Of a stretch of 64,000 bases of DNA, positions 3,466 to 58,294 are shown piece by piece. The translations under genes were made by a program, and so were the position numbers. Source of the DNA: an uncultured Cytophagia bacterium (GTDB taxonomy: Bacteria; Zhuqueibacterota; Zhuqueibacteria; Thermofontimicrobiales; Thiofontviventaceae). Each line of letters begins with the position of its first letter. The first letter of the stretch is position 1. Below the pieces are notes generated by a model. The model had not been told where the DNA came from. It did no database searches and saw only the letters and a program-made list of their open reading frames with translations. The stretch covers positions 4,946 to 68,945 of the forward strand of contig CAZCJL010000020.1 in the NCBI GenBank assembly GCA_964498785.1. Direction: 5' to 3'.

Positions 3466-3917
3466 AAACACAATTAATGGGTCATATAAGATATATTATG
3501 TAAACTGGCGAATTTATTATTCACTTTTCTTCTAAACGCTCACGAAATTCTCTCCGTGCTAATACATACTTTTACAACATTTAAACCTCTTGTTTATTAA
3601 TTTGTTAAAGTTATTTCACCTATTAACCATAAATGTTTTACAATGAACACGCTGTTTCATGATGAAACATTAAATTATTCCTACCTCACATAATTATTAC
3701 ATATAAGGCGTTGATATTTATAGTACTATGATTCTTGAAGCGTTTGGCATCATATTTGTTAATAAAATAGAAATATTATGATACTTAACTAACTGAAATA
3801 TTTTAATTAACTAAGAGCACTACAACTGGTACTATGTTCAATATCGCACGGAAAAGGCATATTCACAACTTTTATTTGGCAAAGACAGTCAAAAAAGCTC
3901 CACATATTGAAGAAACA

Positions 3918-5536: not shown

Positions 5537-5541
5537 CTGTT

Positions 5542-7523: not shown

Positions 7524-7557
7524 TGATAAAAATATTTATTTATAATCGGGTAGTTAA

Positions 7558-8811: not shown

Positions 8812-8826
8812 TTAAAAGGAAATAAT

Positions 8827-20076: not shown

Positions 20077-20077
20077 A

Positions 20078-42742: not shown

Positions 42743-43903
42743 CTATGTTTTCAACCATGTTGATCCCTTTTGGGCAGATTCGGCAGCTTTATTCGTGAAA
42801 CGAACTCCCCGTAGGCCATCATATACAGTGGGAAATTCGTATTCCACTGTCTGTAAAGGAGTGCCGTTAATATAACTTCGGATTGCGTTCACAACACCCA
42901 CATAAATATTTGCAAACGCTTCAAGGTAACCTTCCGGATGTCCTGTGGGAATGCGGGTTGCATTTGCTGCGGCTTCTGAAAGATACTCACTGGCGCGGGT
43001 CAAAATTTCCCGCGGCTGATTGTAGCGATAGACATGCAGATAATTCGGATTTTCCTGCTCCCATATTATAGCGCCTTTTGACGCATAAACCTTTATTCGC
43101 AGGTTATTTTCTTCCCCGGTCGCGATCTGGCTGACTGTGATCAAACCTTTACCTCCGCCTTTTAATCGAATCAACACATTCGCATCTTCATCCAAGGTGC
43201 GATCCGGCAGAAATGTTGAAAAATCAGCACATAATTCACTAATTTCTTCGCCGGTAATGTATTCCAATAAATTCTCTGCATGTGTGCCGCAATCCCCAAT
43301 CGTTCCGACAAGCCCCGATTGTTTCGGATCAACGCGCCAAGCTGCCTGTTTGTGTCCCTCTTTTTCATGCGGATACATCATAAAATCCTGCAAGTATTGA
43401 ACAATAACCTTACGAACGTCTCCCATTTGACCAGTGCGGAACAGATTTCTGGCATGACGTACTAATGGATGACCGGTATAGTTATGCGTGAGCGCAAATA
43501 CCAGTCCTGTCTTTTTAACTAACGAGGCGAGTTGTTCAGCTTCGTCAATCGTACACGTCATGGGTTTATCACAAACAACATGGATACCAGCTTCTAAAAA
43601 TGCTTTGCAAATCGAAAAGTGAGATGCATTCGGAGTCACGATAGACACAAAATCGATTCGTTCATCGTCCGGCAATTTTGATTCATTTTCCGCCATTTCT
43701 TCAAAAGTTGCATAGCAACGTTTTAGATCGAGATACAGTTCTTTCCCTGTGATTTTTGTATTTTCAAAATCACGGGAAAAGCAACCAGCAACAAATTCGA
43801 TTTGCTGGTCCAGAGCTGCGGCCATGCGATGCACAGCGCCAATAAACGCGTCCTGTCCCCCGCCAACCATTCCCATGCGAAGCTTGCGTTTCCATGATTT
43901 CAT
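42743..43903 (-). CDS. Gfo/Idh/MocA family NAD(P)-dependent oxidoreductase
   Basis: 386 aa. N-terminal Rossmann LRMGMVGGGQDAFIGAVH, followed by an EAGIHVVCDKP-type motif. Confidence 0.75.
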   Translation of the reverse strand: MKSWKRKLRMGMVGGGQDAFIGAVHRMAAALDQQIEFVAGCFSRDFENTKITGKELYLDLKRCYATFEEMAENESKLPDDERIDFVSIVTPNASHFSICKAFLEAGIHVVCDKPMTCTIDEAEQLASLVKKTGLVFALTHNYTGHPLVRHARNLFRTGQMGDVRKVIVQYLQDFMMYPHEKEGHKQAAWRVDPKQSGLVGTIGDCGTHAENLLEYITGEEISELCADFSTFLPDRTLDEDANVLIRLKGGGKGLITVSQIATGEENNLRIKVYASKGAIIWEQENPNYLHVYRYNQPREILTRASEYLSEAAANATRIPTGHPEGYLEAFANIYVGVVNAIRSYINGTPLQTVEYEFPTVYDGLRGVRFTNKAAESAQKGSTWLKT

Positions 43904-43922
43904 AAATATGCTCCTGTTAGTT

Positions 43923-44972
43923 TCATTGTAATCCTAAAATTATCTTATTTGTTTCTATATCCGTATCACCACCGGCAAAATCGTCAAATGCCACTTCTGT
44001 GGTTTCAATAATATGCTCCCGAATAAAAGATGCAGCCTCTCTGGCGCCCTGCTCCGGGCTTTTGATACAACATTCCCATTCCAGCACGCCCCAGCCGTCA
44101 TATCCGGCTTCAGTAAGCAAAGAAAAAACTCGTTTAAAATCAACCTGACCGTCTCCCAGCGAGCGAAAACGCCCGGCACGGTTTATCCAGGATTGATAAC
44201 CGCCGTATACACCAACTCTGCCGGTTGGATGGAATTCAGCATCTTTCACATGAAATGATTTTATGCGGCCCCCATAGAGTTCAATAAATTGCAGATAATC
44301 GAGTTGTTGAAGTACGAAATGACTCGGATCATACGTAAGACATGCTGCCGGATGATTATCTGCGGCATCTAAAAACATCTCAAAAGTGGCGCCATCGAAT
44401 AGATCTGATCCCGGATGCAATTCATACGAAATGTAAATTCCTTTGTCCTGTGCCATATCGAGAACAGGTTTCCAGCGTTTCGCCATCTCCTGAAATGCCA
44501 TCCCGATCAATCCATCGGGACGTTGGGGCCAGGGATATACCATGTGCCAGGCTAATCCGCCAGACAGAACAGGAACGCTGTTCAATCCCATATTTGCAGA
44601 AGCAGTTATCGCCATTTTTATCTGATCTTCTGCCCATTGTGTGCGTTCGCTATCACTCTGTCCGTTGGGATGAAATCCCTGAAAAGCAACCGCGTACACC
44701 GGATGAACAACTAACATCTGTCCTTGTAAATGGGCAGAAAGTTCTGCAACTTCCAATCCTATTTCCTTTAGCTTTCCAAGAATATCATCACAATATCCTT
44801 TTGATTCTGCTGCTTTTTCCAAATCAATGACACGGCTCTCCCATGTAGGTATTTGAACACCTTTAAAACCTAAATCAGACGCCCATTTTCCGATATTTTC
44901 CAGATTATTATATGGTTCTTCATCTCTTAAGAATTGAGCCAGAAAAATTCCAGGCCCTTTCATTTTTTTCAT
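43923..44972 (-). CDS. Sugar phosphate isomerase/epimerase (xylose-isomerase-like TIM barrel)
   Basis: Start moved to the ATG at 44972 (MKKMKGPGIF…). The upstream in-frame Met would include the GGGGAGGG RBS itself. TIM-barrel metal ligands are in …SYELHPGSDLF…, HVKD and …VLEWE…. Confidence 0.7.
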   Translation of the reverse strand: MKKMKGPGIFLAQFLRDEEPYNNLENIGKWASDLGFKGVQIPTWESRVIDLEKAAESKGYCDDILGKLKEIGLEVAELSAHLQGQMLVVHPVYAVAFQGFHPNGQSDSERTQWAEDQIKMAITASANMGLNSVPVLSGGLAWHMVYPWPQRPDGLIGMAFQEMAKRWKPVLDMAQDKGIYISYELHPGSDLFDGATFEMFLDAADNHPAACLTYDPSHFVLQQLDYLQFIELYGGRIKSFHVKDAEFHPTGRVGVYGGYQSWINRAGRFRSLGDGQVDFKRVFSLLTEAGYDGWGVLEWECCIKSPEQGAREAASFIREHIIETTEVAFDDFAGGDTDIETNKIILGLQ

Positions 44973-45063
44973 GTAGCACCCTCCCCAATGATATTTAGTT
45001 AAATTCAATATATTAAAAGTGCATGAACATGCTCTTAAAGGATAACACGCCGGAGTTACACCA

Positions 45064-46053
45064 TCACGCTTCCCGAATACATTCTCTGATTAATCGCGAC
45101 ATCGCCGGTCCTTCGGTTCCGGTAGCGCGCAATTCCCTGGCTCCTTTCTCGTTCATTAATTTAACAACATTTTGCGCCAAACGCAAGTTTTCAACCGACA
45201 ATTTCATGAAATCAAGCGGATCATCGCGGTACGGGAACAAGTCAAGTCCGTACCAACCATCATAGTTCATTTGATCGAGCATGTAGACAATACTGACCAG
45301 TCGGATAAAATTCGCTGATCCGGGCGGTATGTCGGCATCCGCTTGCTGGTCATTATCATCAAAATGGGTATGAAATAACTTGTTGTAACGAAGCACGAGT
45401 GCAATTTGGTCTTCAACATTTTCGCGGGCAATCAGGCTATGACCGATATCAAGATTGATTCCGAAGTTCGGATCATCTACTTCATTGACAATTGCCAGTG
45501 CCTGCCCGGTGGTCCCCATCATAATCCACGAACGCGGTTCAAAGGGCTTGGGTTCGATGCAGACTTTGGTTTGATATTTATTTGCGTGTAAATAATCCAA
45601 AATCTGATGCACCGAATCAACGTAACGATCGTAAAGCGCGACATAATCTGTTTGTAACGGAAAATCCATTCCATCTGTTGCAGGCCACAAAACGCTGATC
45701 GGGACATTGAACCGGGCTCCCAATTCCAACGCCCATTTCACGCGGTCAATCGCCTGTGATCGAACTTTGGGATCAGAATCGCCCAGCGCACCGAATTTAT
45801 ACTGTTTTTCAGTCCACGTATGACCGCACAGTTGCACCATTTGCAGATTATAATCCTTTAAAACTTTTTCGATTTCATTTGCATTTTTATCATTGATTTC
45901 AGTGGGAACGTGCAATTCAATGCCATCAATGTCCTCGGTCTCCCCCACTGCTTTGATGCGGTCGATCACCGAAACTTCTTCTCCGAATCCATTCACATTG
46001 AAACGATCACGGAGATTGGTCATACCCCAAATCCCCATACAAATTTTATTCAT
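45064..46053 (-). CDS. Sugar phosphate isomerase/epimerase (xylose-isomerase-like TIM barrel), second paralogous type
   Basis: Start at the ATG at 46053 (MNKICMGIWG…), preceded by GGAGG. IEPKP…, LDIGH and …HFDDN… are metal-binding-like motifs. Confidence 0.7.
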   Translation of the reverse strand: MNKICMGIWGMTNLRDRFNVNGFGEEVSVIDRIKAVGETEDIDGIELHVPTEINDKNANEIEKVLKDYNLQMVQLCGHTWTEKQYKFGALGDSDPKVRSQAIDRVKWALELGARFNVPISVLWPATDGMDFPLQTDYVALYDRYVDSVHQILDYLHANKYQTKVCIEPKPFEPRSWIMMGTTGQALAIVNEVDDPNFGINLDIGHSLIARENVEDQIALVLRYNKLFHTHFDDNDQQADADIPPGSANFIRLVSIVYMLDQMNYDGWYGLDLFPYRDDPLDFMKLSVENLRLAQNVVKLMNEKGARELRATGTEGPAMSRLIRECIREA

Positions 46054-46072
46054 AACAGCCTCCATGAAAAAG

Positions 46073-47017
46073 TTATGTGATTGCAAATTTTTCCAATTCC
46101 GGGAAAATAACACGCTCCTGCTTTTTATTCATAAATTCGTTCATTTCCTGTTGCTGTATCGGAGCAGTGGCGCCGGCTTTTGAAGCAGTCAGCGCACCAA
46201 GTATATTCCCAAAATTACATGCTTCAGTTAATGGCTTTTCACGTAAAATTTTATACACAAATCCGGCAGAAAATGCATCACCGGCGCCGAGAGAATCCAC
46301 TAATTTTATTTTATAGCCCACGGCATAAACACGTTCTCCAAATTCAGACATGGCAAACGCGCCTTTCTCTGCGCATGTTACAAGACAATATTTTAGCGCC
46401 CATTTTTCAATCATTTCTTCACAAAAATGTGGAATCGAAGGATGTGGCACATTCATCAGCCCGGAAAGCTTCAATGCCTCTTCTTCATTCAATTTCAGTA
46501 CATCTGCATTCTGCAAAGAAAAAGTGATCGTTTCCGGGCTATAGCATAATTTGCGCAGATTAATATCCAGAAATTTAAGGCTGTTAACAGATTTTTCGAG
46601 AAGTTGTTTGAGAGTTTGACGTGAGGTATCAGATCGTTGCGCGAGCGTTCCGAAGCAAGTGCACTCCGCACGTTCTGCAATCTGCGCGAGGGAATCGGTC
46701 ATTTTGATATAATCATACGCGACGCCGGGATTGATGACATAATCCGGATTATGCTGTGCATCGAAACTAACATCCACCGTGCCGGTAGGAAATTCATCAT
46801 CCTGTCCCAAAAACGTCGTTTCGATGCCCAATGCTTTAACATGTTCCAGCGCCTCTTGTCCCAACCTGTCCTTTCCCAGCTTACTGACAATGATGCCTCT
46901 GTCACCAAGCGAATTGATTCGATAAGCAAAATTAAATGGCGCTCCCCCCAAAATCGAATTGTCCGGCAAAATATCCCATAAAATTTCGCCAAAAGAAAGA
47001 ATTGTCTTTTTATCCAT
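46073..47017 (-). CDS. PfkB-family carbohydrate kinase (fructokinase-like)
   Basis: ILSFGEILWDILP…GGAPFNFAY at the N-terminus and the DSLGAGDAFSAGFVY anion-hole/ATP motif near the C-terminus. Confidence 0.75.
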   Translation of the reverse strand: MDKKTILSFGEILWDILPDNSILGGAPFNFAYRINSLGDRGIIVSKLGKDRLGQEALEHVKALGIETTFLGQDDEFPTGTVDVSFDAQHNPDYVINPGVAYDYIKMTDSLAQIAERAECTCFGTLAQRSDTSRQTLKQLLEKSVNSLKFLDINLRKLCYSPETITFSLQNADVLKLNEEEALKLSGLMNVPHPSIPHFCEEMIEKWALKYCLVTCAEKGAFAMSEFGERVYAVGYKIKLVDSLGAGDAFSAGFVYKILREKPLTEACNFGNILGALTASKAGATAPIQQQEMNEFMNKKQERVIFPELEKFAIT

Positions 47018-47665
47018 TTATTTCGGTACCTTCTCCCAATCTTTAATAAATTGAGCAAGACCATTATCTGTGAGCGGATGTTGGTACATCTGGAAAAATA
47101 ATGCGTCAGGAACTGTCGCGATATCCGCGCCAACGCGCAACGAGTCCAGAACATGATTCTGTGTTTTTAAACTGGCTGCCAGTACTTCTGATTTAAATCC
47201 ATAATTTTGTTTGATGGTCACCGCATCCTGCAACAGAACAATACTTTCATTTGCCACAGCGTCCAATCGGCTAAGAACGATGCTCACAAAAGTTGCTCCG
47301 GCTTTCATTGCCAGAAAAACCTGAGTGGATGAGAAAATCATCGTCACATTCGTTTTTATGTTTAATTCATGGGACAGAACCGGCACTGCACGCAGTCCTT
47401 CAAAATTCATCGGTATCTTGATGGCGATATTTGGCGCGATCGCCGCGATTTCCTGTGCTTCTTTAATCATGCCTTCTGCATCATCAGCCATCACTTCTGC
47501 GCTTATCGGACCGGGTACAATGCTGGAAATTTCTTTCACAACATCACGAAACTTTCCGCCGGATTTTAATATATGGGTTGGATTTGTTGTCACGCCGTCA
47601 ATCAGGCCGGATCGAGCCGCTTTTTTAATCACATCAATATTTGCCGTATCCAAAAATATTTTCAT
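47018..47665 (-). CDS. Short-type transaldolase / fructose-6-phosphate aldolase (TalC/FSA family)
   Basis: 215 aa. MKIFLDTANIDVIKKA…GVTTNP, Schiff-base Lys region IAIKIPM, and C-terminal HPLTDNGLAQFIKDWEK. Near-colinear with B. subtilis Tal and E. coli FsaA. Confidence 0.75.
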   Translation of the reverse strand: MKIFLDTANIDVIKKAARSGLIDGVTTNPTHILKSGGKFRDVVKEISSIVPGPISAEVMADDAEGMIKEAQEIAAIAPNIAIKIPMNFEGLRAVPVLSHELNIKTNVTMIFSSTQVFLAMKAGATFVSIVLSRLDAVANESIVLLQDAVTIKQNYGFKSEVLAASLKTQNHVLDSLRVGADIATVPDALFFQMYQHPLTDNGLAQFIKDWEKVPK

Positions 47666-47748
47666 TGTATTCTCCTTTTCAACTCGTGTGTCTTGTTAAA
47701 ACTTTTGTCATTATCTAAATTCTTCTTAAGCCGAATGGCTACTGTTTT

Positions 47749-48459
47749 TTATTTTGTCAGTTTGCGCAGGTTATCAACCGTCACCTGGACGTTTGGTGGA
47801 TCACCAAGCTCATTTACAACCTGATCTGATTCTGCAAAATCTTCTTTTTGTGTATACCCGTTTGTTGTTATTACGCACTGCATCCCGGCGGCTTTAGCCG
47901 CAAGCAGACCATTCCGGCTATCTTCGATGACCACGCACTCTTTCGGGTTAAGCTGTAATTTTTTCGTGGCCAGATTGTATATTTCAGGATCCGGCTTTTT
48001 CTTTGAAACGACATCTCCGGCAAAAATTTTACTGAAATGTTTTTTCCGTTCCTCGCCCAACAACTTGCTCACAATCAAATTCACAGCCCGTTCATTTGAG
48101 GTTGAACATACTGCCAAAACGAGACCTGCTTCAATCGCCTCATCCACAATTCGGGCCACACCGGGTCGCAATTGCAATTCACCGGATTCGATGATCTGCA
48201 TAAATAAATCTGTTTTCAATTTATGTAATTCTTTAATGAGCGCATCTTTATCACTTGTTCCCGGCGGCCATGTTGTTTGGTTGAAATAGTGGCGCATCCG
48301 TTCTTTTCCGCCTGCTACTTTCAAAAGATCACCATATAAATCAACACTCCATTCGACATCATATCCTTTTTTCACAAATGCCCTGTTAAAAGCAACCCGA
48401 TGGCCATCCCGCTCCGTATCCACCAGCACACCATCGCAATCAAAAATTAATGCCTTCAT
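47749..48459 (-). CDS. HAD-IA hydrolase, CbbY-like sugar-phosphate phosphatase
   Basis: MKALIFDCDGVLVDTERDGHRVAFNRAF closely matches the CbbY N-terminus (DxDG nucleophile motif). Later …KKPDPEIY and …EDSRNGLLAAKAAGM (HAD motifs III/IV). Confidence 0.7.
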   Translation of the reverse strand: MKALIFDCDGVLVDTERDGHRVAFNRAFVKKGYDVEWSVDLYGDLLKVAGGKERMRHYFNQTTWPPGTSDKDALIKELHKLKTDLFMQIIESGELQLRPGVARIVDEAIEAGLVLAVCSTSNERAVNLIVSKLLGEERKKHFSKIFAGDVVSKKKPDPEIYNLATKKLQLNPKECVVIEDSRNGLLAAKAAGMQCVITTNGYTQKEDFAESDQVVNELGDPPNVQVTVDNLRKLTK

Positions 48460-49682
48460 TGTACTAGTCCTTTATTTTTTTGATCAAATTGTTCCAGATA
48501 TTCTTTAATTGAATTCAAAAATTGGGCGGCGTAGCTACCGTCCACGGCACGATGATCGCACGCGATGCTCATGTTCATCACATTGGCGATACCAATGCTG
48601 TTCCTGTCGCGAACAACCACTTTTTGATCAATTTTTCCGATTCCCAAAATTCCGCACTCCGGCGGATTGATGATCGGTACAAAACTATTGATCGCATACA
48701 TCCCCAAATTGCTGATTGTGAACGTACCGACAGCCGGTGTTTTAAGAACGCCCTGTCGGGCGCCTTCTGCATTTTCTCTTGAAATCCTGCTGATTTCTAA
48801 CAGTGATTTTTCGTTTGTTCTGGGAATCACTGGTACGATTAACCCATCTTCCACCGAAACTGCCACCCCGACATTAATATCCGTCCGTAACACGATTTTA
48901 TTTTCAATGACATGGGCATTCAATCGGGGGTATTTTTCCAGCGACGCAGCCACTGCTTTTACAATCATGTCATTCACAGTGATTTTATCACTGGCATTTT
49001 TATTGAAAACAGCTCGCCATTCCAGCGCTGTGGTCATGTCGATATCAATAAACAAATAAAAATGCGGAATCGTTCGTTTGCTTGTAATAAGCCGTTCGGC
49101 GATCTTTTGCCGCATTTTTGAGAACGGAATTTCCTGATCTGCTGCTGTAACAATTGTCTCTTCAGCTTCTGGCGTGGATATCCCCTTGCCATCATCAGTA
49201 TCAGCAGATTTCGTTGCGGCTGCAAGCACATCCTTTTTGACAATACGCCCACCAGGACCCGTGCCCTGAATTTTATTCAACTCAATCCCCTGCTCTTTTG
49301 CCACTCGCCGCGCAGATGGGGATGCGAAAACACGGCTCGATGATTTCCGGATATCAATTCCCTCCTTAGAATCTTCTGCCGGTTCTTTTTCATCAGCCTG
49401 ATCGGTTTTCGTAACGAAATCTTCGTCATCCGAGACAGTCTCTCCCTGTTCACCAATATAGGCGATCGGTTGAAATGTTTTGATTTCTTCAGCGGGTTCA
49501 AATAGAATTTTCAAAATATAACCGGACTCGTACACTTCCAGATCGAATGTTGCTTTTTCCGATTCGATAGAGGCGATAATGTCGCCTTTTTCCACATAAT
49601 CTCCTTCTTTCACAAACCATTCGCCAATAAATCCGGATTCCACATCCTGACCAACCTGCGGCATTTTCACTGGATTCGCCAT
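48456..49682 (-). CDS. 2-oxoacid/acetoin dehydrogenase complex E2 (dihydrolipoamide acyltransferase)
   Basis: 408 aa. Lipoyl domain with the lipoyl-Lys in IESEKATFDLE, peripheral-subunit-binding domain SPSARRVAKEQGIELNKIQGTGPGGRI, and catalytic DHRAVDG. Confidence 0.8.
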   Translation of the reverse strand: MANPVKMPQVGQDVESGFIGEWFVKEGDYVEKGDIIASIESEKATFDLEVYESGYILKILFEPAEEIKTFQPIAYIGEQGETVSDDEDFVTKTDQADEKEPAEDSKEGIDIRKSSSRVFASPSARRVAKEQGIELNKIQGTGPGGRIVKKDVLAAATKSADTDDGKGISTPEAEETIVTAADQEIPFSKMRQKIAERLITSKRTIPHFYLFIDIDMTTALEWRAVFNKNASDKITVNDMIVKAVAASLEKYPRLNAHVIENKIVLRTDINVGVAVSVEDGLIVPVIPRTNEKSLLEISRISRENAEGARQGVLKTPAVGTFTISNLGMYAINSFVPIINPPECGILGIGKIDQKVVVRDRNSIGIANVMNMSIACDHRAVDGSYAAQFLNSIKEYLEQFDQKNKGLVQ

Positions 49683-49687
49683 TCTGC

Positions 49688-50545
49688 TTATTCTTCCTTT
49701 CCTGAACTTCCGAAAAATTCGATATTTTCTTTAACTTCTTTTTTTAACTGCTCATATTGGTCAGCCAGTACTTTCACCGGCTCATATTCGTTTGGATGCT
49801 CCTGATGATATTTTACAAATTCATTGATAAAAGCATGTTTTAACTGAGTGGATATATTTACCTTAGCACACCCCAGTGAAATACATTTGCGAAAAACATC
49901 CGACGAAAGCCCTGTTCCGCCATGAAGCGCCAATGGCACCGGAGTTCTGCCCGCAATCGTTTTTAATCGTTCGAAATCGATTTTGGGTTCGCCTTTATAA
50001 ACCCCGTGTGCAGTACCGATTGCCGGCGCAAAACATTGTAAATCAAGCGTCTGACAAAATCGCTCCGCTTTATCCGGATCCGCAAGATGTGCATCTTCCT
50101 CTGCAACGACTATATCATCTTCAACACCGCCAATTTCACCGAGCTCGGCTTCAACACTCACATTTGCTGGTTTTGCCATTTCCACAACCTGCCGTGTGAG
50201 TTCCATGTTTTTTTCAAACGGTTGAGAAGAAGCATCGATCATTACTGATGTCCAGCCCGCTTGAATACATTTTTGGATCATATCAAGATCTTTGCAATGA
50301 TCAAGATTCATGGCAACGGGAATTTTTACATTTTCTGAAAGTTGATGATACCAGGATACAATTGCATTGTATCCCCATAATTTCACTGTTTTTACTGAAA
50401 TTTGAACAATGACCGGCGCGTTTAAGTCGCTCGCAGCATCGACAACTGCTTTAAACGAATTATAATCCAGTATATTAAACGCACCAACTGCATATTTCCC
50501 ATCCCGGGCTTTTCGCAGCATGTCAGTCATATTTACAATAGCCAT
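49688..50545 (-). CDS. Class II (ketose-bisphosphate) aldolase family: fructose/tagatose-bisphosphate aldolase type
   Basis: 285 aa. MTDMLRKARDGKYAVGAFNILDYNS…NAPVIVQIS and …LDHCKD… / …ALHGGTGLS… are class II aldolase hallmarks. Confidence 0.8.
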   Translation of the reverse strand: MAIVNMTDMLRKARDGKYAVGAFNILDYNSFKAVVDAASDLNAPVIVQISVKTVKLWGYNAIVSWYHQLSENVKIPVAMNLDHCKDLDMIQKCIQAGWTSVMIDASSQPFEKNMELTRQVVEMAKPANVSVEAELGEIGGVEDDIVVAEEDAHLADPDKAERFCQTLDLQCFAPAIGTAHGVYKGEPKIDFERLKTIAGRTPVPLALHGGTGLSSDVFRKCISLGCAKVNISTQLKHAFINEFVKYHQEHPNEYEPVKVLADQYEQLKKEVKENIEFFGSSGKEE

Positions 50546-50863
50546 ATCACATCACCCTAATATAGTTATTTGTTAACTTCGACTTGAATTGAGCGATTGA
50601 CATTTAGTTATAAGAATTCAATTAATTAGAATGATAATTGTGTATCACCCATCAAATGAAATATTATAAACAAGCTAATTGCTTCTAAATTAAAAGCCAA
50701 AGGCTAAAAGCTAATAGCCAAACGCTGTTTTTAGATTCAAAAAAGAAAATTCAATCGTTCAATTTAGAAATTATCCTGAAAACCACAATTATAAATTTTA
50801 AATAATCCCCTGACTCTACCATGTACCTTCCGATAGAATCGGGAGACCGTATTTTAATATAAA

Positions 50864-52390
50864 TCATTCCTGTTGTTGAAGCTCTATTGCCTTGTAACCG
50901 CCTTTTGATCTAAAATAGAAGATCAACCCAAGATAACATAACAGCATAATTGCCGGAAAAATCGCAACGGTCATTAATGCATTTTTCTTTGCCGTATCAA
51001 CTAATCGCTTTACAATTCCTTTTTCCTCAGCAGTTAATATCGCTAATTTTGCCTGATTGATTGGCTGATACTTTCCGAACACACTACTTTCTTCCTGTCC
51101 GACGACTTTTTCATGCAAAATAATATTTTGATCGGCGAGATCCCTGTCAATTTGCCGGTCCTGAATATTTCCCAAAAATGCAGCGCCAATAACACCGACA
51201 GTTAACATACCAACTCCTGAAATCGTGTTCAGTGTAAGTGCGCCTCCTTTGGGAAATCGTTCGGCGACAACCCCCAACATTGTGGGCCAGAAAAAGGATT
51301 TACCGATGCCATATAATGTTGCCGCGATAAAAATCATAATTCCAACAGCTTTGGATAAAAACACCAGACCAATGATTGCCACAACACTGCAAATCGCCAG
51401 CGTTCCCAATGGGGTGAATTTATCTACTATCGGACCGGCGGAAAAGCGCATAATCATCATAATAAGTGATGTATAAACCAACACCCAACCAGCCTGCAAT
51501 CCGATGTCACCCATCACCGGCGTTAACAATTCCGTAATCCAGCTATCTGTGCCCAGTTCGGTAGTTGCCATTGGAATCATGATGAGTACGAGAAAAATAA
51601 ACATCGGCCTGCCAGGTGAACGTACGTAAACTGCGTATCCTATTATCAGCACGGCAGAAATAATAATTTGAGCGGTTAATGACCATGCGAAGACACGTCC
51701 CAGCTCGCGCACCATCATGACGACAATAATCGCCGCGCCCAATACTCCTGCTTCCTGCAACATCGCTTTGTAAGAAACGCCGGCTTTCACACGCTCGTGC
51801 ACCGGAAATTTGACACGCAGCATCATGACTCCGTAAATAATTGCGGGAATAAAAATCAAACCGACTTTCCATTTCCATTCAATTCCCGGTCCCATGATCA
51901 ATGCCAGCACGCCACCCAGTACAAGTCCGCCTGGCCATCCGGCATGTAAAATATTCAGCCATTTTGTCTTTTCCCTGGAAAATACAGTTGCCACGACCGG
52001 ATTGATCACTGCTTCCACCGTGCCATTTCCCAATGCAACGATGAAGGTTCCAATATATAACATCCAATAGCCATTGGCAAAAATGGTGAGAATTGCAGAA
52101 GTAATGTGACAAACAAACGCGAAAATCATCGCTCTGCCATAACCAATTTTATCAATGACAAAGCTGAACAGGACAATACTGATCGCAAAAGGCCATAAAC
52201 CAACGCCGAGCAACTCTCCTTTTTGTGTTTCGCTGAGATTAAACTCGACTCCCCAATCACCAATAATTTGCGTTCTGATAATAAATCCAAACGCAGTGGC
52301 AACCAGTGCGATGAAGCATGCCCAAAACAACCATTGCGGCTTCTCTTCAGCCAGTTCCCTGACCGAATCCTTTTTACCTGCCTGACTCAT
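50864..52390 (-). CDS. MFS-type transporter with a C-terminal cytoplasmic extension
   Basis: Start at the ATG at 52390 (MSQAGKK…), preceded by AGGAGG. ~12 TM, followed by a ~90-aa hydrophilic tail and a final hydrophobic segment. Confidence 0.6.
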   Translation of the reverse strand: MSQAGKKDSVRELAEEKPQWLFWACFIALVATAFGFIIRTQIIGDWGVEFNLSETQKGELLGVGLWPFAISIVLFSFVIDKIGYGRAMIFAFVCHITSAILTIFANGYWMLYIGTFIVALGNGTVEAVINPVVATVFSREKTKWLNILHAGWPGGLVLGGVLALIMGPGIEWKWKVGLIFIPAIIYGVMMLRVKFPVHERVKAGVSYKAMLQEAGVLGAAIIVVMMVRELGRVFAWSLTAQIIISAVLIIGYAVYVRSPGRPMFIFLVLIMIPMATTELGTDSWITELLTPVMGDIGLQAGWVLVYTSLIMMIMRFSAGPIVDKFTPLGTLAICSVVAIIGLVFLSKAVGIMIFIAATLYGIGKSFFWPTMLGVVAERFPKGGALTLNTISGVGMLTVGVIGAAFLGNIQDRQIDRDLADQNIILHEKVVGQEESSVFGKYQPINQAKLAILTAEEKGIVKRLVDTAKKNALMTVAIFPAIMLLCYLGLIFYFRSKGGYKAIELQQQE

Positions 52391-52461
52391 TCGTCCCTCC
52401 TCATTAATACACAATAATCTGAATTAAAAAATGACAAACGCAAAAAATTATATAACGTGAA

Positions 52462-53475
52462 TTATAATATTCTCTTTACAGCATCAATAATGTCATTTTC
52501 ATGCGGAACGCTTCGTTTTTCCAGATTTAAATTAAATGGTACGGGTGAATTCATTCCGGCGACAATTTCAATGGGAGCATCCAGATAATCGAACGCCTGT
52601 TGCTGAATGATAGACGCAATGTCCGAAGCAATTCCCCCTCTGCGAATTGCCTCCTGCACAATCACAACATGTTCGGTTTTGCGCACCGATTCTAAAATGG
52701 CGTCGCTATCCAAAGGGCTAAGCGTGCGCGGATCAACGACTTCCGCGTCAATGCCCTGTTGCGCCAGCGTTTCTGCCGCGGCCAGCGATTTTGGAACCAT
52801 ATTCGACCAGGCAATGATTGTCACATTGCTGCCGCTCCTTTTTATGTCAGCTTTGCCAAAATCGATGGTATAGTCTTCCGGCGGAACGTGCCCTTCCTGC
52901 ATATAAAGTAATTTATGTTCAATGAAAATCACCGGGTCATCGGCACGGATAGCAGTTTTCAGTAACCCTTTGGCATCATACGGCGTGGATGGCATCACGA
53001 CTTTCAAACCGGGGATATGATAGAAAATCGCTTCCAGACTTTGCGAATGCTGCGCTGCCAGTCCATTTCCAACGCCGCCCTGGGTTCTCATAACAATCGG
53101 AACTCGTCCGATACCACCGGTCATGAAATTGTATTTCGCCGCCTGATTTATCAACTGATCCAGCGTGAGCAACGTGAAATCCACAAACAATATTTCTACG
53201 ACCGGCCGCATTCCCGTGATTGCAGCGCCGATACCTGCACCGGTAAAACTCGCCTCGGCAATCGGGGTATCAATCACCCGTTGTGGTCCAAATTCCTTTA
53301 ATAAATCTACTGTTACTTTATATGAACCACCTCGTTCGGCGATTCCCTCTCCCATCAGGAATACCGTGGAATCACGCGTCATCTCTTCACGTAATGCTTC
53401 ATTCAGCGCTTCTCGATAAAGCAGCGGTCGTTGTGCTGTATTATTTTTTGATTTTGCTTTCGTTAGAACGGTCAT
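52462..53475 (-). CDS. TPP-dependent 2-oxoacid/acetoin dehydrogenase E1 component, beta subunit
   Basis: 337 aa. …VFLMGEGI…GSYKVT…EFGPQRVIDTPIAEASFTGAGIGAA… is a canonical E1-beta (transketolase-like Pyr and C-terminal domains). Confidence 0.85.
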   Translation of the reverse strand: MTVLTKAKSKNNTAQRPLLYREALNEALREEMTRDSTVFLMGEGIAERGGSYKVTVDLLKEFGPQRVIDTPIAEASFTGAGIGAAITGMRPVVEILFVDFTLLTLDQLINQAAKYNFMTGGIGRVPIVMRTQGGVGNGLAAQHSQSLEAIFYHIPGLKVVMPSTPYDAKGLLKTAIRADDPVIFIEHKLLYMQEGHVPPEDYTIDFGKADIKRSGSNVTIIAWSNMVPKSLAAAETLAQQGIDAEVVDPRTLSPLDSDAILESVRKTEHVVIVQEAIRRGGIASDIASIIQQQAFDYLDAPIEIVAGMNSPVPFNLNLEKRSVPHENDIIDAVKRIL

Positions 53476-53486
53476 TTTTTGCTCCG

Positions 53487-54446
53487 TTAATAATCCATTA
53501 CCATTTGATTAAATTCCGCAAAGGTCAGCTCCGGACTTTTTTTCGCAAATTCAATTGCCTGCTCCATGTTCGCTTCTACCTCTTTTTCAATCTGCTCAAT
53601 CTCAGATTCGCTCATTTTTCCTTCTTCTCTGAGATAATCTTTTGCTACACTTACCGGATCCTTTGATTTGAAATATTCGAGACGATCTTTGGGCATGTAT
53701 GCACCGGGATCGTTCACATGATGCCCGCCATGCCGATAGGTTTTTGATTCAATCAGTACCGGACCTTTTCCCTGAACGCATAAATCACGGGCTTCTCTTG
53801 TTTGTTCAAGAACTTTAATAACATCATTTCCATCTACCGAAAATGATCGCACGCCATATCCTGCCGCTCGTTCGTACAGGTTTGGATTCCGGCTCGATTC
53901 TTCAATGGGGGTTGATACGGCATAATGATTATTTTCAAGAAGAAATATAACAGGTAGATTCCATATTGCAGCCAAATTCAGTGATTCGGCAAAAACGCCG
54001 TTATTAGCCGCCCCATCTGAAAAGAAAATGACAACGACCCTTTTTTCTTTACGGATGGAAATTCCGAGAGCAGCTCCGACTCCGATGGGAATGCCGCCAC
54101 CCACGATGCCGTTTGCGCCAAGATTACCAACCTGAACATCGGCGATATGCATAGATCCTCCCAGTCCGCGACAGTAACCAGTCTTTTTGCCTAATAATTC
54201 AGCAACCATTCTATCGATGTTCGCACCGCGTGCAATGCAGTGTCCATGACCACGATGCGTGCTAATGATATAATCATCATCGTTTAACGCCGCACAGACG
54301 CCAACAGCAGTGGCCTCTTCGCCAAGATACGGGTGAAAATATCCTCTGATCAATCCCTGTCGGTATAATTTAATACATTCCGTTTCAAAGACCCGAATAG
54401 TATAAATCGTGTGAAATAATTGCTTTAATAAATCTTTCTCGTACAT
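53487..54446 (-). CDS. TPP-dependent 2-oxoacid/acetoin dehydrogenase E1 component, alpha subunit
   Basis: 319 aa. …THRGHGHCIARG…GGSMHIAD…GIVGGGIPIGVGAA…FFSDGAANNGVF…ENNHYAVSTP carries the TPP-binding GDG-X-N signature. Confidence 0.85.
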   Translation of the reverse strand: MYEKDLLKQLFHTIYTIRVFETECIKLYRQGLIRGYFHPYLGEEATAVGVCAALNDDDYIISTHRGHGHCIARGANIDRMVAELLGKKTGYCRGLGGSMHIADVQVGNLGANGIVGGGIPIGVGAALGISIRKEKRVVVIFFSDGAANNGVFAESLNLAAIWNLPVIFLLENNHYAVSTPIEESSRNPNLYERAAGYGVRSFSVDGNDVIKVLEQTREARDLCVQGKGPVLIESKTYRHGGHHVNDPGAYMPKDRLEYFKSKDPVSVAKDYLREEGKMSESEIEQIEKEVEANMEQAIEFAKKSPELTFAEFNQMVMDY

Positions 54447-54565
54447 AGTATCTCCGTTTTTTTCTAATCAGATTTCCATGCGAATGGGGCTGTATATTTT
54501 CTTATATGAAAAGCGGTTCAATATTTAAAACACTAACTTAACGCTAAAAGTGTTAATAAAAAAAA

Positions 54566-55291
54566 TCAGGTCGCTCTGACAGTAAATTTATATTTGTCGC
54601 CGCGATAAATCGATTTTTCCATTTCCAAAATCATTTCTTTCCCACAAAATGTAACGCCTTCAATCAGGAACGCAGGTGTAGCTTCTTTGACATCGAAAAA
54701 TTCTTTGATTCCTGTATTCATCATAATGGCGCTTAGCTCCTGGACGACTTCAGAAAGGCGGAGTTTGTATATTTTCTCATAAACATTATCATACAAAGAG
54801 CCGCTAAAATCCTGATTTTCGATATCCGGGCAAAACTGTTTGTTTATGTACCGAACTTCCATCATCATGGGAATATTGTTTGCGTATCGCAGACGATGAA
54901 TTTTGAAAACAGGTCCTTTGATAGTGTACTTGCGCCCACTGATGAGAGCAGAGTATCCATCCGCTATTTCCTTTGTCTCCAAAATTTTTGTGGAAGGTGT
55001 ATAACCCGCCTCAATCATATTTTTTGTAAAACTCAAAATTCGGGTAGCCGACCGCTCTATTGTATTTCTCTGGACAAAAGTGCCTTTGCCTTTAATCTTT
55101 AATGCCCATCCCAAAGATTCAATTTCATTTAGAATCTTACGGGCAGTGGTATTACTCACTTCATATTTTTTAACAATTTCGTTTTCAGAGGGAACACGCA
55201 TTCCCGGTAGTAATTCACCGGTCTGAATTTTTTCAATTATCTCTCGACTGATTTGATAATACAGAGGGAGATTGTGGTCTCTTGCATTCAT
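54566..55291 (-). CDS. GntR-family transcriptional regulator, HutC/UTRA subfamily
   Basis: 241 aa. N-terminal wHTH LPSENEIVKKYEVSNTTARKILNEIESLGWALKIKGKGTFV and a C-terminal UTRA-like effector domain. Sits at the head of the minus-strand catabolic locus. Confidence 0.8.
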   Translation of the reverse strand: MNARDHNLPLYYQISREIIEKIQTGELLPGMRVPSENEIVKKYEVSNTTARKILNEIESLGWALKIKGKGTFVQRNTIERSATRILSFTKNMIEAGYTPSTKILETKEIADGYSALISGRKYTIKGPVFKIHRLRYANNIPMMMEVRYINKQFCPDIENQDFSGSLYDNVYEKIYKLRLSEVVQELSAIMMNTGIKEFFDVKEATPAFLIEGVTFCGKEMILEMEKSIYRGDKYKFTVRAT

Positions 55292-55451
55292 TGTTTTTCT
55301 GATTGTTAAGTTAACGCTCTAACCTGTTAACATATTATAATAATAATTTTTGATTTTGTCAATACTTTTTTTCCATCAAAAAAGCCCTGTACCTATCATT
55401 AATTTAATAGAATCAGGGCTTTTAATAAAATTGATTCATGTAATATTTTTT

Positions 55452-56957
55452 TTATACCCTGCCGTAAAGTTCAGTCGATTCAGCCAAAGATTCTTTTAAA
55501 GCAGGAGTAATTTGTTCCTGTAATAATCGCCAGCTCCAGTTACCAGATGCAGTTGCGGGTCGATTCATTCGGGCTTCCGGACCAAGTCCCAGCAAATCCT
55601 GCATCGACAGGATGCAAATATTGGCGACAGATTGCATTACCATGCGCACAAATTCTTTGGGAACTTCATCCCGTGTTACTTTCCGGCCAATATATCTGAA
55701 CACAGATTGCTTCATTTTATCATTTGCTTCCTGATCGAACCATCCTTTTACCGTATTATTATCGTGTGTGCCAGTATAAGCAATGCAATTCTGAATATAA
55801 TTATGTGGTGCATCCGGATTGCGCGGCAGGTTTTCATCGAATGCAAATGACAGGACTCGCATTCCCGGGAAGCCAAAATGATGGATTGTCTCAACGACAT
55901 CCGGAGTAATAAATCCAAGATCTTCGGCAATAATGGGTAAATGTGGAAAATGCTTTAACAATGTATTAAAATAATCCATAACCGGAGCCTTAATCCACTC
56001 CCCTTTTACTGCTGTTTTTTCTGTTGCAGGCACTTCCCAAAATGCAACAAACCCGCGAAAATGATCAATGCGCACAATATCAAAGAGACTTAAATTATGT
56101 TTCATTCGCTGAATCCACCAGTCGTATTCTGTCTCTTTCAGAACATCCCATCGAAATACCGGATTTCCCCACAATTGACCGGTAGAACTAAAATAATCCG
56201 GAGGCACTCCTGCAACAAATTCAGGCATTTTTTTATGATCAAGTTTAAAAATTTCCGGATTTTTCCATACTTCCACACTGTCGTAGCTCACATAATACGG
56301 TACATCTCCAATAATCTGCACACCCTTATCGTTACAATATTTTTTAAGAGCATCCCACTGCTTATAAAACAAAAACTGGATAAATTTTTCTAACTCAATT
56401 CGCTCACGTAATTTTTTCTTAAGGGTTGAAAGGGTTGCCTCATTTCTATCACGAACCGTCTGTGGCCAATGGCTCCATGATTGTTCCTGATAGGAAGATT
56501 TTAGGGCTCGAAAAAAAGCAAAATCGTCAACCCAATCTGCATTTTTATTGATAAAATGTTCGAATTCATTCTGAAACAATTTTTTATTTTTATTAAAACG
56601 TTCGAATGCTTTTTGAAATAAAATGTCTTTAAAATGAATCACCTTATCATAACTCACACGATCCAGAGTAAAATCCGGAATTGTTTTCAGATCCGACATT
56701 TTTAACAAACCGTTCTCTAACATAATTTCCGGGCTGATGACCAGCGGATTCCCGGCATACATGGAAACACTGCTATACGGAGAATTATCCATTGCCGGAT
56801 TGGTTGGATTTAATGGAAGCATCTGCCAGTAACTTTGTTTCGTTTCGGCCAGGAAATCGACAAAATTATACGCGCCTGGCCCCATATCTCCGATTCCATA
56901 ATCCGAAGGAAGCGATGTTAAGTGTAGCAGAATTCCATTTCCTCGTTTAATAATCAT
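55452..56957 (-). CDS. malQ: 4-alpha-glucanotransferase (amylomaltase, GH77)
   Basis: 501 aa. …GILLHLTSLPSDYGIGDMGPGAYNFVDFLAETKQSYWQMLPLNPT… and …RIDHFRGF… are GH77 catalytic-region motifs. Confidence 0.85.
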   Translation of the reverse strand: MIIKRGNGILLHLTSLPSDYGIGDMGPGAYNFVDFLAETKQSYWQMLPLNPTNPAMDNSPYSSVSMYAGNPLVISPEIMLENGLLKMSDLKTIPDFTLDRVSYDKVIHFKDILFQKAFERFNKNKKLFQNEFEHFINKNADWVDDFAFFRALKSSYQEQSWSHWPQTVRDRNEATLSTLKKKLRERIELEKFIQFLFYKQWDALKKYCNDKGVQIIGDVPYYVSYDSVEVWKNPEIFKLDHKKMPEFVAGVPPDYFSSTGQLWGNPVFRWDVLKETEYDWWIQRMKHNLSLFDIVRIDHFRGFVAFWEVPATEKTAVKGEWIKAPVMDYFNTLLKHFPHLPIIAEDLGFITPDVVETIHHFGFPGMRVLSFAFDENLPRNPDAPHNYIQNCIAYTGTHDNNTVKGWFDQEANDKMKQSVFRYIGRKVTRDEVPKEFVRMVMQSVANICILSMQDLLGLGPEARMNRPATASGNWSWRLLQEQITPALKESLAESTELYGRV

Positions 56958-58294
56958 TTTCTTCTCCTATCAATAGCCCTACTGGGAAATGCTGCATTAC
57001 ATTTCCCACAAATAAATCATGAACGTCCTGATTCGTTATTCCATCTCTCCAACAATTAACTTTAACAGGAAAAGTTAACTGCGTATTTTTCCATACACTT
57101 TTTCCAATATAATCTCTTATTCGACGGGGATAATCTGTATATTCACTCGCAAAAAACGGAAACGTTCCAATTAATGTTTGATACAGGAAATATTCATCAT
57201 TTCTATCCGGCGCTTTTCCGTTTTTTGTATTCTTTTTTTTGCGACGATTAATTTTCGCCCATATTTTAAAATTTTTTTCCCATTCATCCGGAATTTCCGA
57301 TAGTATATTCAACCGAGCCCGTACATCCTCCCCTCGTTTAATATCGTGCGTGGAAGTTGCATTCATCGTATTTGGCCAATTGTTTATTCGATTTTTATTA
57401 AAATAGTGAAATTCAATGGTTGATATACCAAACTTATCCGGGTTCCCTCCGACCTCATTTAATGAGATTAGCCGGTTAAAATTATACATCACCGTGTCTT
57501 CAAGTCCTTTTGCCATTAACGGGCCGGTCATTTGCTGAAATCGCATCACAAAATTTCTCCACTGCTCTTTTTCTTCATCAGGTAAATTATCATCAAAATT
57601 GAGTGACAACATTTTTTGTATAAAATTGAATTCATTCTCAAAATTGGGCATAACTATTTTTGCCTTGCGGACAGCTTCGCCGATGTATTGAATTTCATTT
57701 TCAGTGATTTCATTTGTGAGGTTATAGGTTCGATAGACAGGAAACCAGGATAAAATTTCGACCAGTGACCGACGCAAACCATATAGAGTAAAATCAGCAG
57801 CGTCTCGGCGTTTACTGGCAATGTTAGCCAACAGGTGTGCAAGATTAGCCACATCCCCTGCCATGTGTTTCCCCATAATCAGTCTTTTTTTTGCATGTAC
57901 TAAATTTTCGAATTGAATGGGGTTCCCATTCGATATCAAAAAAATGTGCATATCGGGAGTGTGGTCCATTTTCCAGGACATCCATCAGGATTTTATTTTG
58001 CGAATCATACGCCATGTGATTCGGGACCACATCTTGTAACCAGCCCATATTCACTTTTTTCAATTCTTCGTTCAATTTTGAAAAATCGTTCTCTGTCCCC
58101 AATTCAGAGTTCAACTGCGTCGGATCAACAACATCGTAACCATGCATACTTCCTTTTCGGGCTTTAAAAATTGGCGATGCGTACACATCGGAAATTCCCA
58201 GTTCCGCAAGATACAAAATGATCGCTTTCAAATCCTGAAATGTGAATTCATGATTCAATTGTATTCGATAAGTTGATTTTGGGATATGTTTCAT
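56947..58294 (-). pseudogene. treY: Malto-oligosyltrehalose synthase (TreY) remnant: frameshifted, with internal and C-terminal deletions
   Basis: The 149-aa ORF 57845..58294 matches the TreY N-terminus (STYRIQLNHEFTF…VYASPIF…GYDVVDPT…VPNHMAYD…FDIEWEP) and then runs into a stop. A second 344-aa ORF in another frame (56947..57981) matches the TreY mid-region (PVYRTY, FQQMTGPLMAKGLEDT, STHDIKRGEDVRARL). The total span of ~450 codons is well short of the ~720-800 aa of full-length TreY. Confidence 0.6.

Follow-up and report, generated by a model that had tools for sequence, protein, structure and literature searches.

What do a dehydrogenase-type E1alpha, E1beta and E2 do inside a sugar operon that encodes no E3? 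The question is raised by a gene cluster in a stretch of 64,000 nucleotides (hereafter the window) of contig CAZCJL010000020.1, from an uncultured bacterium; the closest named homologues belong to candidate division KSB1. Twelve intact genes, all on the minus strand, lie within positions 42743-55291 (Table 1). In order they encode a GntR/HutC regulator, the E1alpha and E1beta subunits, a transporter of the MFS family, a class II ketose-bisphosphate aldolase (FBA), a lipoyl-bearing E2, a CbbY-type phosphatase of the HAD family, a short transaldolase (Tal), a PfkB-family sugar kinase, two AP_endonuc_2 TIM barrels (TIM_A and TIM_B) and a Gfo/Idh/MocA oxidoreductase (GFO). An earlier note, made from the sequence alone, had listed these genes with the same families, order and strand, and all twelve are confirmed by Pfam and NCBIfam. 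It had also reported that E3, IolD and IolA are missing, and in fact the locus and the scanned open reading frames (ORFs) of the window contain no E3 and no match to TPP_enzyme (IolD), Aldedh (IolA) or IolB.

We tentatively propose, as a possibility with the chances somewhat against it, that this is a horizontally spread operon repressed by its GntR/HutC regulator, which would carry out a lipoate-dependent C2 split of a ketose phosphate and recycle the remainder through Tal or through FBA and CbbY. This reading is favoured because FBA is inserted between E1beta and E2, because HAD is coupled or fused to E2, because the E2 core can be lost with the lipoyl domain kept, because FBA and HAD co-vary and appear interchangeable with Tal, and because E3 is absent; these five features are hard to reconcile with a housekeeping pyruvate dehydrogenase (PDH). 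The set of recycling enzymes and the precedent of QncN/L and SclQ2-4 (PMC6335953) favour it as well.

The proposed route would begin with TIM_B and GFO, which would turn a 2-hydroxy-3-keto-glycal or a 3-keto-hexose, compounds formed when glucosides or anhydro-sugars are cleaved oxidatively and without hydrolysis, into an aldohexose (D-glucose being the likeliest). TIM_A and PfkB, the constant pair of the operon, would then convert the aldose to a ketose and the ketose to a ketose phosphate of the fructose 6-phosphate type. E1alpha/beta would not oxidise pyruvate; its thiamine diphosphate (TPP) would attack the C2 carbonyl of the ketose phosphate in a transketolase-like manner, so that the C2 fragment would be loaded onto lipoate, and passed to coenzyme A (CoA) where the E2 core is present, and an aldose phosphate two carbons shorter would be freed. 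Two interchangeable routes would lead from this aldose phosphate to a pentose-phosphate-pathway intermediate: in one the modified transaldolase would add a C3 unit, in the other the class II aldolase would add dihydroxyacetone phosphate (DHAP) and the CbbY-type enzyme would strip the 1-phosphate of the bisphosphate. The identities of the enzymes at sequence level, the conserved gene order, the joint variation of modules and the common operator are observed. What E1 acts on, whether the C2 product is glycolyl or acetyl, whether the kinase acts before E1 and which sugar is imported are inferred. Recycling after the removal of C2 units, as in the bifid shunt and in non-oxidative glycolysis, calls for an aldolase, a bisphosphatase and a transaldolase; the Embden-Meyerhof-Parnas route to pyruvate can do without them.

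Conservation and variation of the operon

The sample comprised the contexts around E1alpha homologues and 80 metagenome loci around TIM_A (loci are cited by L numbers); 27 loci were fully covered from E1beta to TIM_A. The gene string recurs in about 50 loci from metagenomes or metagenome-assembled genomes (MAGs) labelled KSB1, Phycisphaerae/Planctomycetota or Acidobacteria. Homologues of E1alpha (about 70% identity) and of TIM_A (72-88%) are found in MAGs of KSB1, Phycisphaerae/Sedimentisphaerales/Planctomycetota, Acidobacteria, Omnitrophota, Gemmatimonadota, Poribacteria and Sumerlaeota. The common order is (GntR)-E1a-E1b-FBA-E2-HAD-Tal-PfkB-TIM_A-(TIM_B)-(Gfo), and the arrangement is not due to chance, because the same string is present in dozens of independent loci. 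The earlier suggestion that E1/E2 is a dedicated part of a GntR-controlled sugar locus holds: the embedding is conserved across phyla and one operator is shared. A scan of genome contigs with a single E1alpha returned 21 loci, mostly distant PDH-like genes, and no cultured carrier.

The variation among copies is modular. Fifteen of the 27 loci have the full set; in eight, E2 is reduced to the lipoyl domain and the E3/E1-binding domain (PSBD) and fused to HAD, and five of these eight are also without Tal; three have neither FBA nor HAD and keep Tal and a full E2; one has no E2. The position of FBA is always between E1beta and E2. FBA and HAD are both present (24/27) or both absent (3/27), never one alone, and none of the 27 loci is without both Tal and the FBA+HAD pair, as would be expected if the two were alternative means to the same end. 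In many copies TIM_A, PfkB and E1/E2 occur with neither TIM_B nor a Gfo-type enzyme. Phosphofructokinase (PFK), triose-phosphate isomerase (TPI) and glyceraldehyde-3-phosphate dehydrogenase (GAPDH) were found in no operon copy.

Across phyla the block is 60-85% identical, and the G+C content of the locus is 43.0% versus 36.8% in the rest of the window; the higher G+C and the cross-phylum identity point to a mobile accessory module. An IS701/IS4-like transposase (767-1978) flanks the operon in L066. The G+C contrast and this transposase are consistent with horizontal transfer.

The E1 and E2 components

E1alpha, E1beta and E2 resemble the components of PDH and acetoin dehydrogenase (PdhABCD, AcoABCL), with a heterotetramer-type E1alpha/beta and an E2 made of a lipoyl domain, a PSBD and a DHRxxDG core; E1alpha matches human PDH E1alpha at 1e-65. 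They differ from these systems in that none of about 50 operon copies carries an E3, genes for sugar-phosphate enzymes stand between E1beta and E2, and one operon clade manages without the E2 core. Moreover E1alpha and E2 remain below the PDH equivalog cut-offs (TIGR03182, 344.8 against 393.85; TIGR01349, 338.3 against 445). The AcoC-type E2 model (NF011457) gives 67.7 against a cut-off of 307, in the lipoyl/PSBD part only, and the disulfide (redox) motif of E3 was found neither in any operon copy nor in the window. Outside the clade, the E1 genes closest in sequence (45-53% identity) stand in an icd-obg-dprA context of housekeeping type, with no sugar genes.

A precedent for an enzyme of this kind acting on sugars is provided by the split E1-like proteins and lipoyl-acyltransferases QncN/L and SclQ2-4, which take a C2 unit from ketose phosphates, not from 2-oxo acids, and supply the glycolicacyl unit of non-ribosomal peptides (PMC6335953). 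Compared by description, QncN/QncL/QncM and SclQ1-4 share with the present proteins the division into separate TPP-binding and pyrimidine-binding/transketolase C-terminal proteins, the lipoyl-acyltransferase and similar sizes. They differ in belonging to secondary metabolism and in delivering the unit to an acyl carrier protein (ACP), whereas the present operon has no ACP, has a PSBD and stands in a catabolic sugar setting. The general idea of the earlier note, that E1/E2 splits a carbonyl compound derived from a sugar and forms an acyl thioester, remains plausible; it comes near to the reading favoured here, which has an acyclic ketose phosphate and not a cyclic dione as the substrate.

In the fusion clade a lipoyl domain, a linker, a PSBD and a CbbY domain form one protein (about 402-439 aa) from which the acyltransferase core is missing; it is present in at least nine independent loci (Table 1), and the same architecture is found in at least 14 of the 120 best relatives of HAD (protein clusters). 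The lipoyl domain of the fusions keeps its lysine and has a mean identity of 95.5% (minimum 90%), against 91% for the HAD domain and 73% for the linker and PSBD. The conservation of the lipoyl domain and the loss of the core therefore argue that the lipoyl arm is under selection and the CoA-transferring core is dispensable, and the same loss argues that this is not a housekeeping PDH, which could not lose its core. We infer that the CbbY domain of these fusions is docked to E1 through the PSBD.

Aldolase, CbbY-type phosphatase and transaldolase

FBA is a generic class II ketose-bisphosphate aldolase (TIGR00167 cbbA, 283 against a cut-off of 215.6; PDB 7ncc, 2e-65). HAD, which the earlier note had already called CbbY-like, aligns with Arabidopsis CbbY (PDB 4uav) at 2e-82 over 222 aa, with roughly 58% identity as counted from the alignment, and with Rhodobacter CbbY at 4e-46; the nucleophile motif FDCDGVL is present. 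HAD is thus probably a close orthologue of CbbY, the xylulose-1,5-bisphosphate (XuBP) 1-phosphatase. As in the cbb (Calvin) operons and with the plant enzyme, a class II aldolase is paired with a CbbY phosphatase; unlike them, the locus and the window contain neither Rubisco nor phosphoribulokinase, the pair belongs to a sugar operon of heterotrophic type, and some lineages have CbbY fused to a lipoyl-PSBD arm.

Tal passes TIGR00875 (254.6 against 245.95), matches the Thermotoga maritima transaldolase 1vpx at 1e-64 and keeps the positions of the Schiff-base lysine and of the catalytic glutamate. The canonical active-site strand S-P-F/Y-V-G/N-R (Phe in transaldolase, Tyr in FSA) is absent from it: Tal has SIVLSRLD where the T. 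maritima enzyme has SPFVGRMDD (SPFVGRxDD in transaldolases). This motif is shared by the window and nearly all of 30 operon homologues, the exceptions being three with a single substitution, and Tal belongs to a transaldolase subfamily with a rebuilt active-site motif. Sulfoquinovose pathways were considered and rejected, as no sulfoquinovosidase, sulfolactaldehyde enzyme or sulfite exporter is present and the sulfofructose transaldolase BmSF-TAL matches Tal at 3e-35, more weakly than ordinary transaldolases do.

The proposed logic is that of the bifid shunt (phosphoketolase) and of the sulfo-TK and sulfo-TAL pathways, in which an isomerase yields a ketose, a TPP enzyme takes C2 (or a transaldolase C3), and an aldolase, a phosphatase and a transaldolase recycle the remainder. 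It would differ in the TPP enzyme, which here is E1alpha/beta with a lipoyl acceptor; phosphoketolase, transketolase and sulfonate genes are absent.

Isomerase, kinase and the distal pair

TIM_A matches PDB 3ktc (2e-33) and the xylose isomerases of Actinoplanes and Streptomyces, down to 1e-19; L-rhamnose isomerase was also matched. Its motifs IEPKPFEP, DIGH, ADAD and GLDLFP align with residues that we take to be E181/K183, H220, D255/D257 and D287 of Streptomyces xylose isomerase. The metal-site motifs (EPKPxEP, GH, DxD and the D287 equivalent) are invariant in 26 family members, and the score for the XylA equivalog is 118, below the cut-off of 447. TIM_A is predicted to be a metal-dependent aldose-ketose isomerase of an uncharacterised and very conserved family. 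PfkB matches the 'fructokinase' PDB 2qhp at 1e-50 and remains below all NCBIfam equivalog cut-offs. MFS is a lineage-specific insertion between E1beta and FBA, found also in L008, L030 and L066 and, as more distant copies, in L067, L069 and L070.

The last two genes have clear relatives in the 3-keto-glycoside route. TIM_B aligns with the solved 2-hydroxy-3-keto-glucal hydratase (PDB 8ro4) at E 2e-141 over 348 aa and with the IolE structure 3cny only at 2e-9. A full-length alignment of 382 aa shows 43% identity between GFO and the Agrobacterium tumefaciens 'Gfo Oxo' (E 2e-95; Suppl. Table 6 of PMC10628242), and GFO matches PDB 3v5n at 3e-110. In A. tumefaciens AtOGE, AtHYD and the Gfo enzyme turn 3-keto-phlorizin into glucose with NADH (PMC10628242, which is also the source for the function of AtHYD). 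By homology TIM_B is probably the orthologue of the Agrobacterium 2-hydroxy-3-keto-glucal hydratase and GFO that of the NADH-dependent 3-keto-glucose reductase.

Like the 3-keto-glycoside/levoglucosan pathway of A. tumefaciens (GlycDH/AtOGE/AtHYD/Gfo) and Bacillus smithii (LgdA/B1/B2/C), the locus has adjacent orthologues of hydratase and reductase. Unlike it, the window contains no glycoside or levoglucosan 3-dehydrogenase (GFO reaches 117 bits against the levoglucosan dehydrogenase cut-off of 650) and no recognisable beta-eliminase (AtOGE/LgdB1), and TIM_B and GFO are the optional end of a larger operon with E1/E2, FBA, CbbY, Tal, kinase and isomerase. TIM_A was considered as the missing eliminase and rejected: it matches no solved structure named as a glycoside or levoglucosan eliminase at E<=1e-3, its xylose-isomerase motifs are retained, and it is found in copies that have no TIM_B or Gfo. 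In other lineages the distal end carries a levoglucosan-dehydrogenase-like Gfo (366-391 bits with NF052479, cut-off 650) and an extra, third AP_endonuc_2 TIM barrel, and such copies may encode the full oxidation-elimination-hydration set. Among the accessory genes of the operon, those for 3-keto-sugar enzymes (hydratase, reductase and the levoglucosan-dehydrogenase-like enzyme) are the most frequent.

Regulation

A promoter-like site and a predicted operator, O1, precede gntR, and a second predicted operator, O2, lies between gntR and E1alpha (Table 1). The imperfect palindrome TTAGWGCGTTAA is present upstream of gntR in 11 distinct loci, with the equivalent site in L008, L011, L029, L030, L063/L073, L066, L067, L070, L071 and L113; in L067 the operator is the perfect palindrome TTAACGCGTTAA, and tandem copies occur in L063/L073 and L011. 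A second copy after gntR is also found in L008, L030 and L070. TTAGWGCGTTAA is a candidate operator of the HutC-type regulator across phyla. Its occurrence at the same position in different loci is an argument that the operon moves together with its regulator and operator, and that the GntR regulator controls E1alpha. The 318-bp gap between MFS and FBA contains a weak terminator-like hairpin, and Rfam finds in it no riboswitch or other RNA element.

Alternative readings of the operon

The most ordinary explanation is a glucoside/3-keto-sugar operon joined to genes of central metabolism, in which TIM_B, GFO, TIM_A and PfkB lead to fructose 6-phosphate, FBA and Tal serve glycolysis and the pentose-phosphate pathway as usual, HAD acts either as a fructose/sedoheptulose bisphosphatase or in metabolite repair, and E1/E2 is the cell's PDH with E3 encoded elsewhere; we consider it unlikely, if by no means far-fetched. 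Several observations that speak for it weigh at the same time against the C2 split: E1alpha, E1beta and E2 find their best matches among genuine PDH components, E1beta exceeds the PDH subfamily cut-off (NF006667, 417 against 321), and the motifs of E1 and E2 are ordinary, with the TPP motif, the lipoyl lysine and DHRxxDG intact. Variants of the type GntR-FBA-HAD-PfkB, with no E1/E2, occur in L113 (a complete Phycisphaerales genome) and also in L042, L051 and L071; they show that the sugar genes work without E1/E2, and FBA, HAD and PfkB therefore have a role independent of E1. It is also common for lpd to be shared between complexes and encoded elsewhere, and the NADH-oxidising complex I is encoded next door. 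Three more points count against the C2 split: an oxidative split gives glycolyl-CoA, for which the locus offers no obvious onward route; the documented substrate of CbbY is the C5 bisphosphate XuBP, whereas the hexose route predicts the C7 sedoheptulose bisphosphate (SBP); and all taxon labels derive from MAGs. A housekeeping PDH, on the other hand, has to accommodate a clade in which E1 and a strongly conserved lipoyl domain are kept and the acyltransferase core is deleted, an FBA always inserted between E1beta and E2, a HAD translationally coupled or fused to E2, a bisphosphatase that would be pointless in a glycolytic operon, a rebuilt transaldolase motif throughout the operon copies, E1alpha and E2 scores under the PDH equivalog cut-offs, the absence of PFK, TPI, GAPDH and E3 from every copy, and a G+C content and cross-phylum identity like those of a mobile accessory element.

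Other substrates for E1 and for the kinase were also weighed. If the 3-keto-hexose were left unreduced, TIM_A could convert it to a 2,3-hexodiulose, PfkB could phosphorylate this, and E1 could cleave it in the manner of acetoin dehydrogenase, giving a C2 acyl-lipoate and a C4 fragment for Tal or for FBA and HAD. The frequency of 3-keto-sugar enzymes among the operon accessories, the ability of acetoin-type E1 to cleave alpha-hydroxyketones and diketones and the position of E1alpha outside the PDH equivalog agree with such an acyclic diketone; nevertheless it seems improbable, as many copies with no TIM_B or Gfo keep TIM_A, PfkB and E1/E2, the cleavage would yield 4-phosphoerythronate and no aldehyde, leaving FBA, HAD and Tal with no substrate, and we know of no such activity for xylose-isomerase-type enzymes. 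Assimilation of small hydroxy-aldehydes would instead rely on the invariant trio of PfkB, FBA and CbbY: PfkB would phosphorylate glycolaldehyde or a tetrose, FBA would condense the product with DHAP to XuBP or SBP, and CbbY would release a pentose-phosphate intermediate, with E1/E2 and Tal added to produce or process that aldehyde. This would use exactly the documented substrate of CbbY, the condensation of DHAP with glycolaldehyde phosphate by FBA is known, and both the strict pairing of FBA with HAD and the E1-less variants would be accounted for; PfkB, however, is fructokinase-like, no PfkB glycolaldehyde kinase is known to us, and TIM_A, TIM_B, GFO and the secreted accessories suggest a hexose or glycoside substrate, so that we give this possibility quite a low probability.

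The earlier note had read the locus as encoding the catabolism of inositol/cyclitols (iol-like) or of rare ketoses, with E1/E2 cleaving a cyclic 1,2-dione in place of IolD and IolA. At the level of families the resemblance is real, since four of them (Gfo/Idh/MocA, AP_endonuc_2 TIM barrels, PfkB and class II aldolase, resembling iolG/E/I/C/J) are common to the locus and the Bacillus subtilis iol operon, and IolD, IolA and IolB are absent as that reading would expect. All iol equivalog models, however, are far under their cut-offs: GFO scores 56.1 bits against IolG (TIGR04380, cut-off 355), TIM_B 67.8 against IolE (TIGR04379, cut-off 290) and PfkB 91 against IolC (TIGR04382, cut-off 300). Two of the 'iol-like' enzymes, TIM_B and GFO, have closer and different orthologues in the 3-keto-glucal hydratase and the 3-keto-glucose reductase, TIM_A is xylose-isomerase-like and not IolI/IolE-like, sister loci carry levoglucosan-dehydrogenase-like enzymes, and no role would be left for CbbY or the transaldolase. 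The inositol reading is thus largely refuted, and we regard it as very improbable.

Locus boundaries, flanking and accessory genes

For MFS, TIM_A and TIM_B the starts at 52390, 46053 and 44972 were preferred over the longest ORF, on the basis of homologues and of an independent gene call. The intergenic spacing ranges from -4 to 119 bp, the gap between MFS and FBA being the exception; HAD overlaps the stop of E2 by 4 bp, and TIM_B and GFO are 19 bp apart. The flanks are unrelated to the operon, with malQ, treY fragments, treZ and a treS-like gene upstream and a complete nuoA-N operon downstream.

Table 1. Coordinates of the operon and its regulatory sites in the window, and of related features in sister loci (L numbers).
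Feature	Position	Strand	Remarks
Promoter-like site upstream of gntR, TTGACA-17 nt-TATAAT	55334..55362	-	12/12 consensus positions
Predicted GntR operator O1, TTAGAGCGTTAA	55311..55322	-	12-23 nt downstream of -10 box
GntR/HutC regulator, winged helix + UTRA	54566-55291	-	PF00392, PF07702; below every NCBIfam equivalog cut-off
Predicted operator O2, TTTTAGCGTTAA, between gntR and E1alpha	54538..54549	-	10/12 to consensus
E1alpha, TPP-binding subunit, heterotetrameric 2-oxoacid/acetoin-dehydrogenase-type E1	53487-54446	-	PF00676
E1beta, pyrimidine-binding + transketolase C-terminal domains	52462-53475	-	NF006667
MFS transporter, 508 aa	50864-52390	-	Pfam/NCBIfam
FBA, class II ketose-bisphosphate aldolase (FBA2)	49688-50545	-	PF01116 at 2.5e-95
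E2: lipoyl (ESEKA), PSBD, acyltransferase core (CDHRAVDG)	48456-49682	-	
CbbY-type HAD phosphatase	47749-48459	-	PDB 4uav, Rhodobacter CbbY
Tal, short transaldolase/FSA-family protein	47018-47665	-	TIGR00875
PfkB-family sugar kinase, fructokinase-like	46073-47017	-	PF00294
TIM_A, AP_endonuc_2 barrel, xylose-isomerase-type	45064-46053	-	PDB 3ktc, xylose isomerases
TIM_B, AP_endonuc_2 barrel, predicted 2-hydroxy-3-keto-glucal hydratase (AtHYD) orthologue	43923-44972	-	PDB 8ro4
GFO, Gfo/Idh/MocA oxidoreductase	42743-43903	-	A. tumefaciens Gfo Oxo; PDB 3v5n
Lipoyl-PSBD-CbbY fusions	L007:12867-14114; L032:12836-14083; L033; L037; L041; L045; L053; L055; L087		
Levoglucosan-dehydrogenase-like Gfo / extra barrel	L074:3824-4954; L098:10997-12160; L043:8041-9174; L074:6769-7752; L063:4574-5578		
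Signal-peptide family 'PGDVFREYxW'	L061:4890-6164; L031:15983-17221; L032:17352-18605; L113:11767-13008		about 420 aa
FG-GAP/VCBS and ConA-like secreted proteins	L005:14171-17602; L032:18672-20932; L033:6794-11532; L051:13717-15903		
Sulfatase directly upstream of E1alpha	L003:8746-11964; L030:8737-11994		about 411-416 aa

Among the flanking genes, treY (maltooligosyl-trehalose synthase; window 56947-58294, between malQ and treZ) appears truncated or split: it consists only of a pair of short ORFs (344 and 149 aa) that overlap each other and match portions of models some 840-1,700 positions long. L001 and L002, which are independent assemblies, show this arrangement too. Further away, two adjacent TLC-type genes of the MFS family, similar to ATP/ADP translocases, lie at 23088-27225, the second (950 aa) with C-terminal HEAT repeats; such a pair is unusual in a free-living sediment bacterium. 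Several consecutive ORFs of 230-580 aa, with no Pfam match at E<=1e-5, occupy 3834-9810 and 20060-21796, with genes for a TPR protein and an Omp85-like protein beside them.

In sister loci other genes are attached to the operon. In copies of the Phycisphaerae type, genes for a family of signal-peptide proteins with the conserved N-terminus 'PGDVFREYxW', absent from the window, often follow TIM_B or separate PfkB from TIM_A. Secreted FG-GAP/VCBS proteins of large size (750-1150 aa; their matches to the AUDH beta-propeller are faint) and a 728-aa ConA-like lectin/glucanase are attached repeatedly, and these secreted proteins may release the operon substrate from a polymer. Neither the 'PGDVFREYxW' nor the FG-GAP proteins received a family assignment from Pfam, NCBIfam or PDB. 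The faint AUDH matches had prompted a 1,5-anhydrofructose route, which found no support. In two loci a sulfatase is adjacent to E1alpha: in L030 it lies inside the operon, downstream of the second operator and beside a GH63-like gene, and in L003 E1alpha/beta stand alone beside it.

Implications for sugar catabolism

Full-text literature searches found no description of this operon. All its parts come from known families, and there is a substantial chance that the locus encodes a new route. That this is specifically a catabolic route of primary metabolism, in which a lipoate-dependent E1alpha/beta takes C2 units from ketose phosphates and a tethered FBA/CbbY pair or a modified transaldolase recycles the remainder, is conceivable though rather doubtful.

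Even on a conservative view, the operon connects downstream metabolism with the non-hydrolytic 3-keto-glycoside route, itself a recent discovery, and it defines a conserved regulator-operator pair and three uncharacterised, highly conserved subfamilies, namely TIM_A, the SIVLSRLD transaldolases and the lipoyl-PSBD-CbbY fusions. If E1/E2 acts on a sugar phosphate, this would be a new C-C cleavage in central sugar catabolism, a lipoate-linked counterpart of phosphoketolase. CbbY, so far a scavenger of Rubisco inhibitors, would gain a mainstream physiological role in heterotrophs, and the lipoyl-PSBD arm would serve to dock a phosphatase onto E1. The route would also explain a gene block that is common in poorly known glycan-degrading phyla of sediments, KSB1, Phycisphaerae and others among them.

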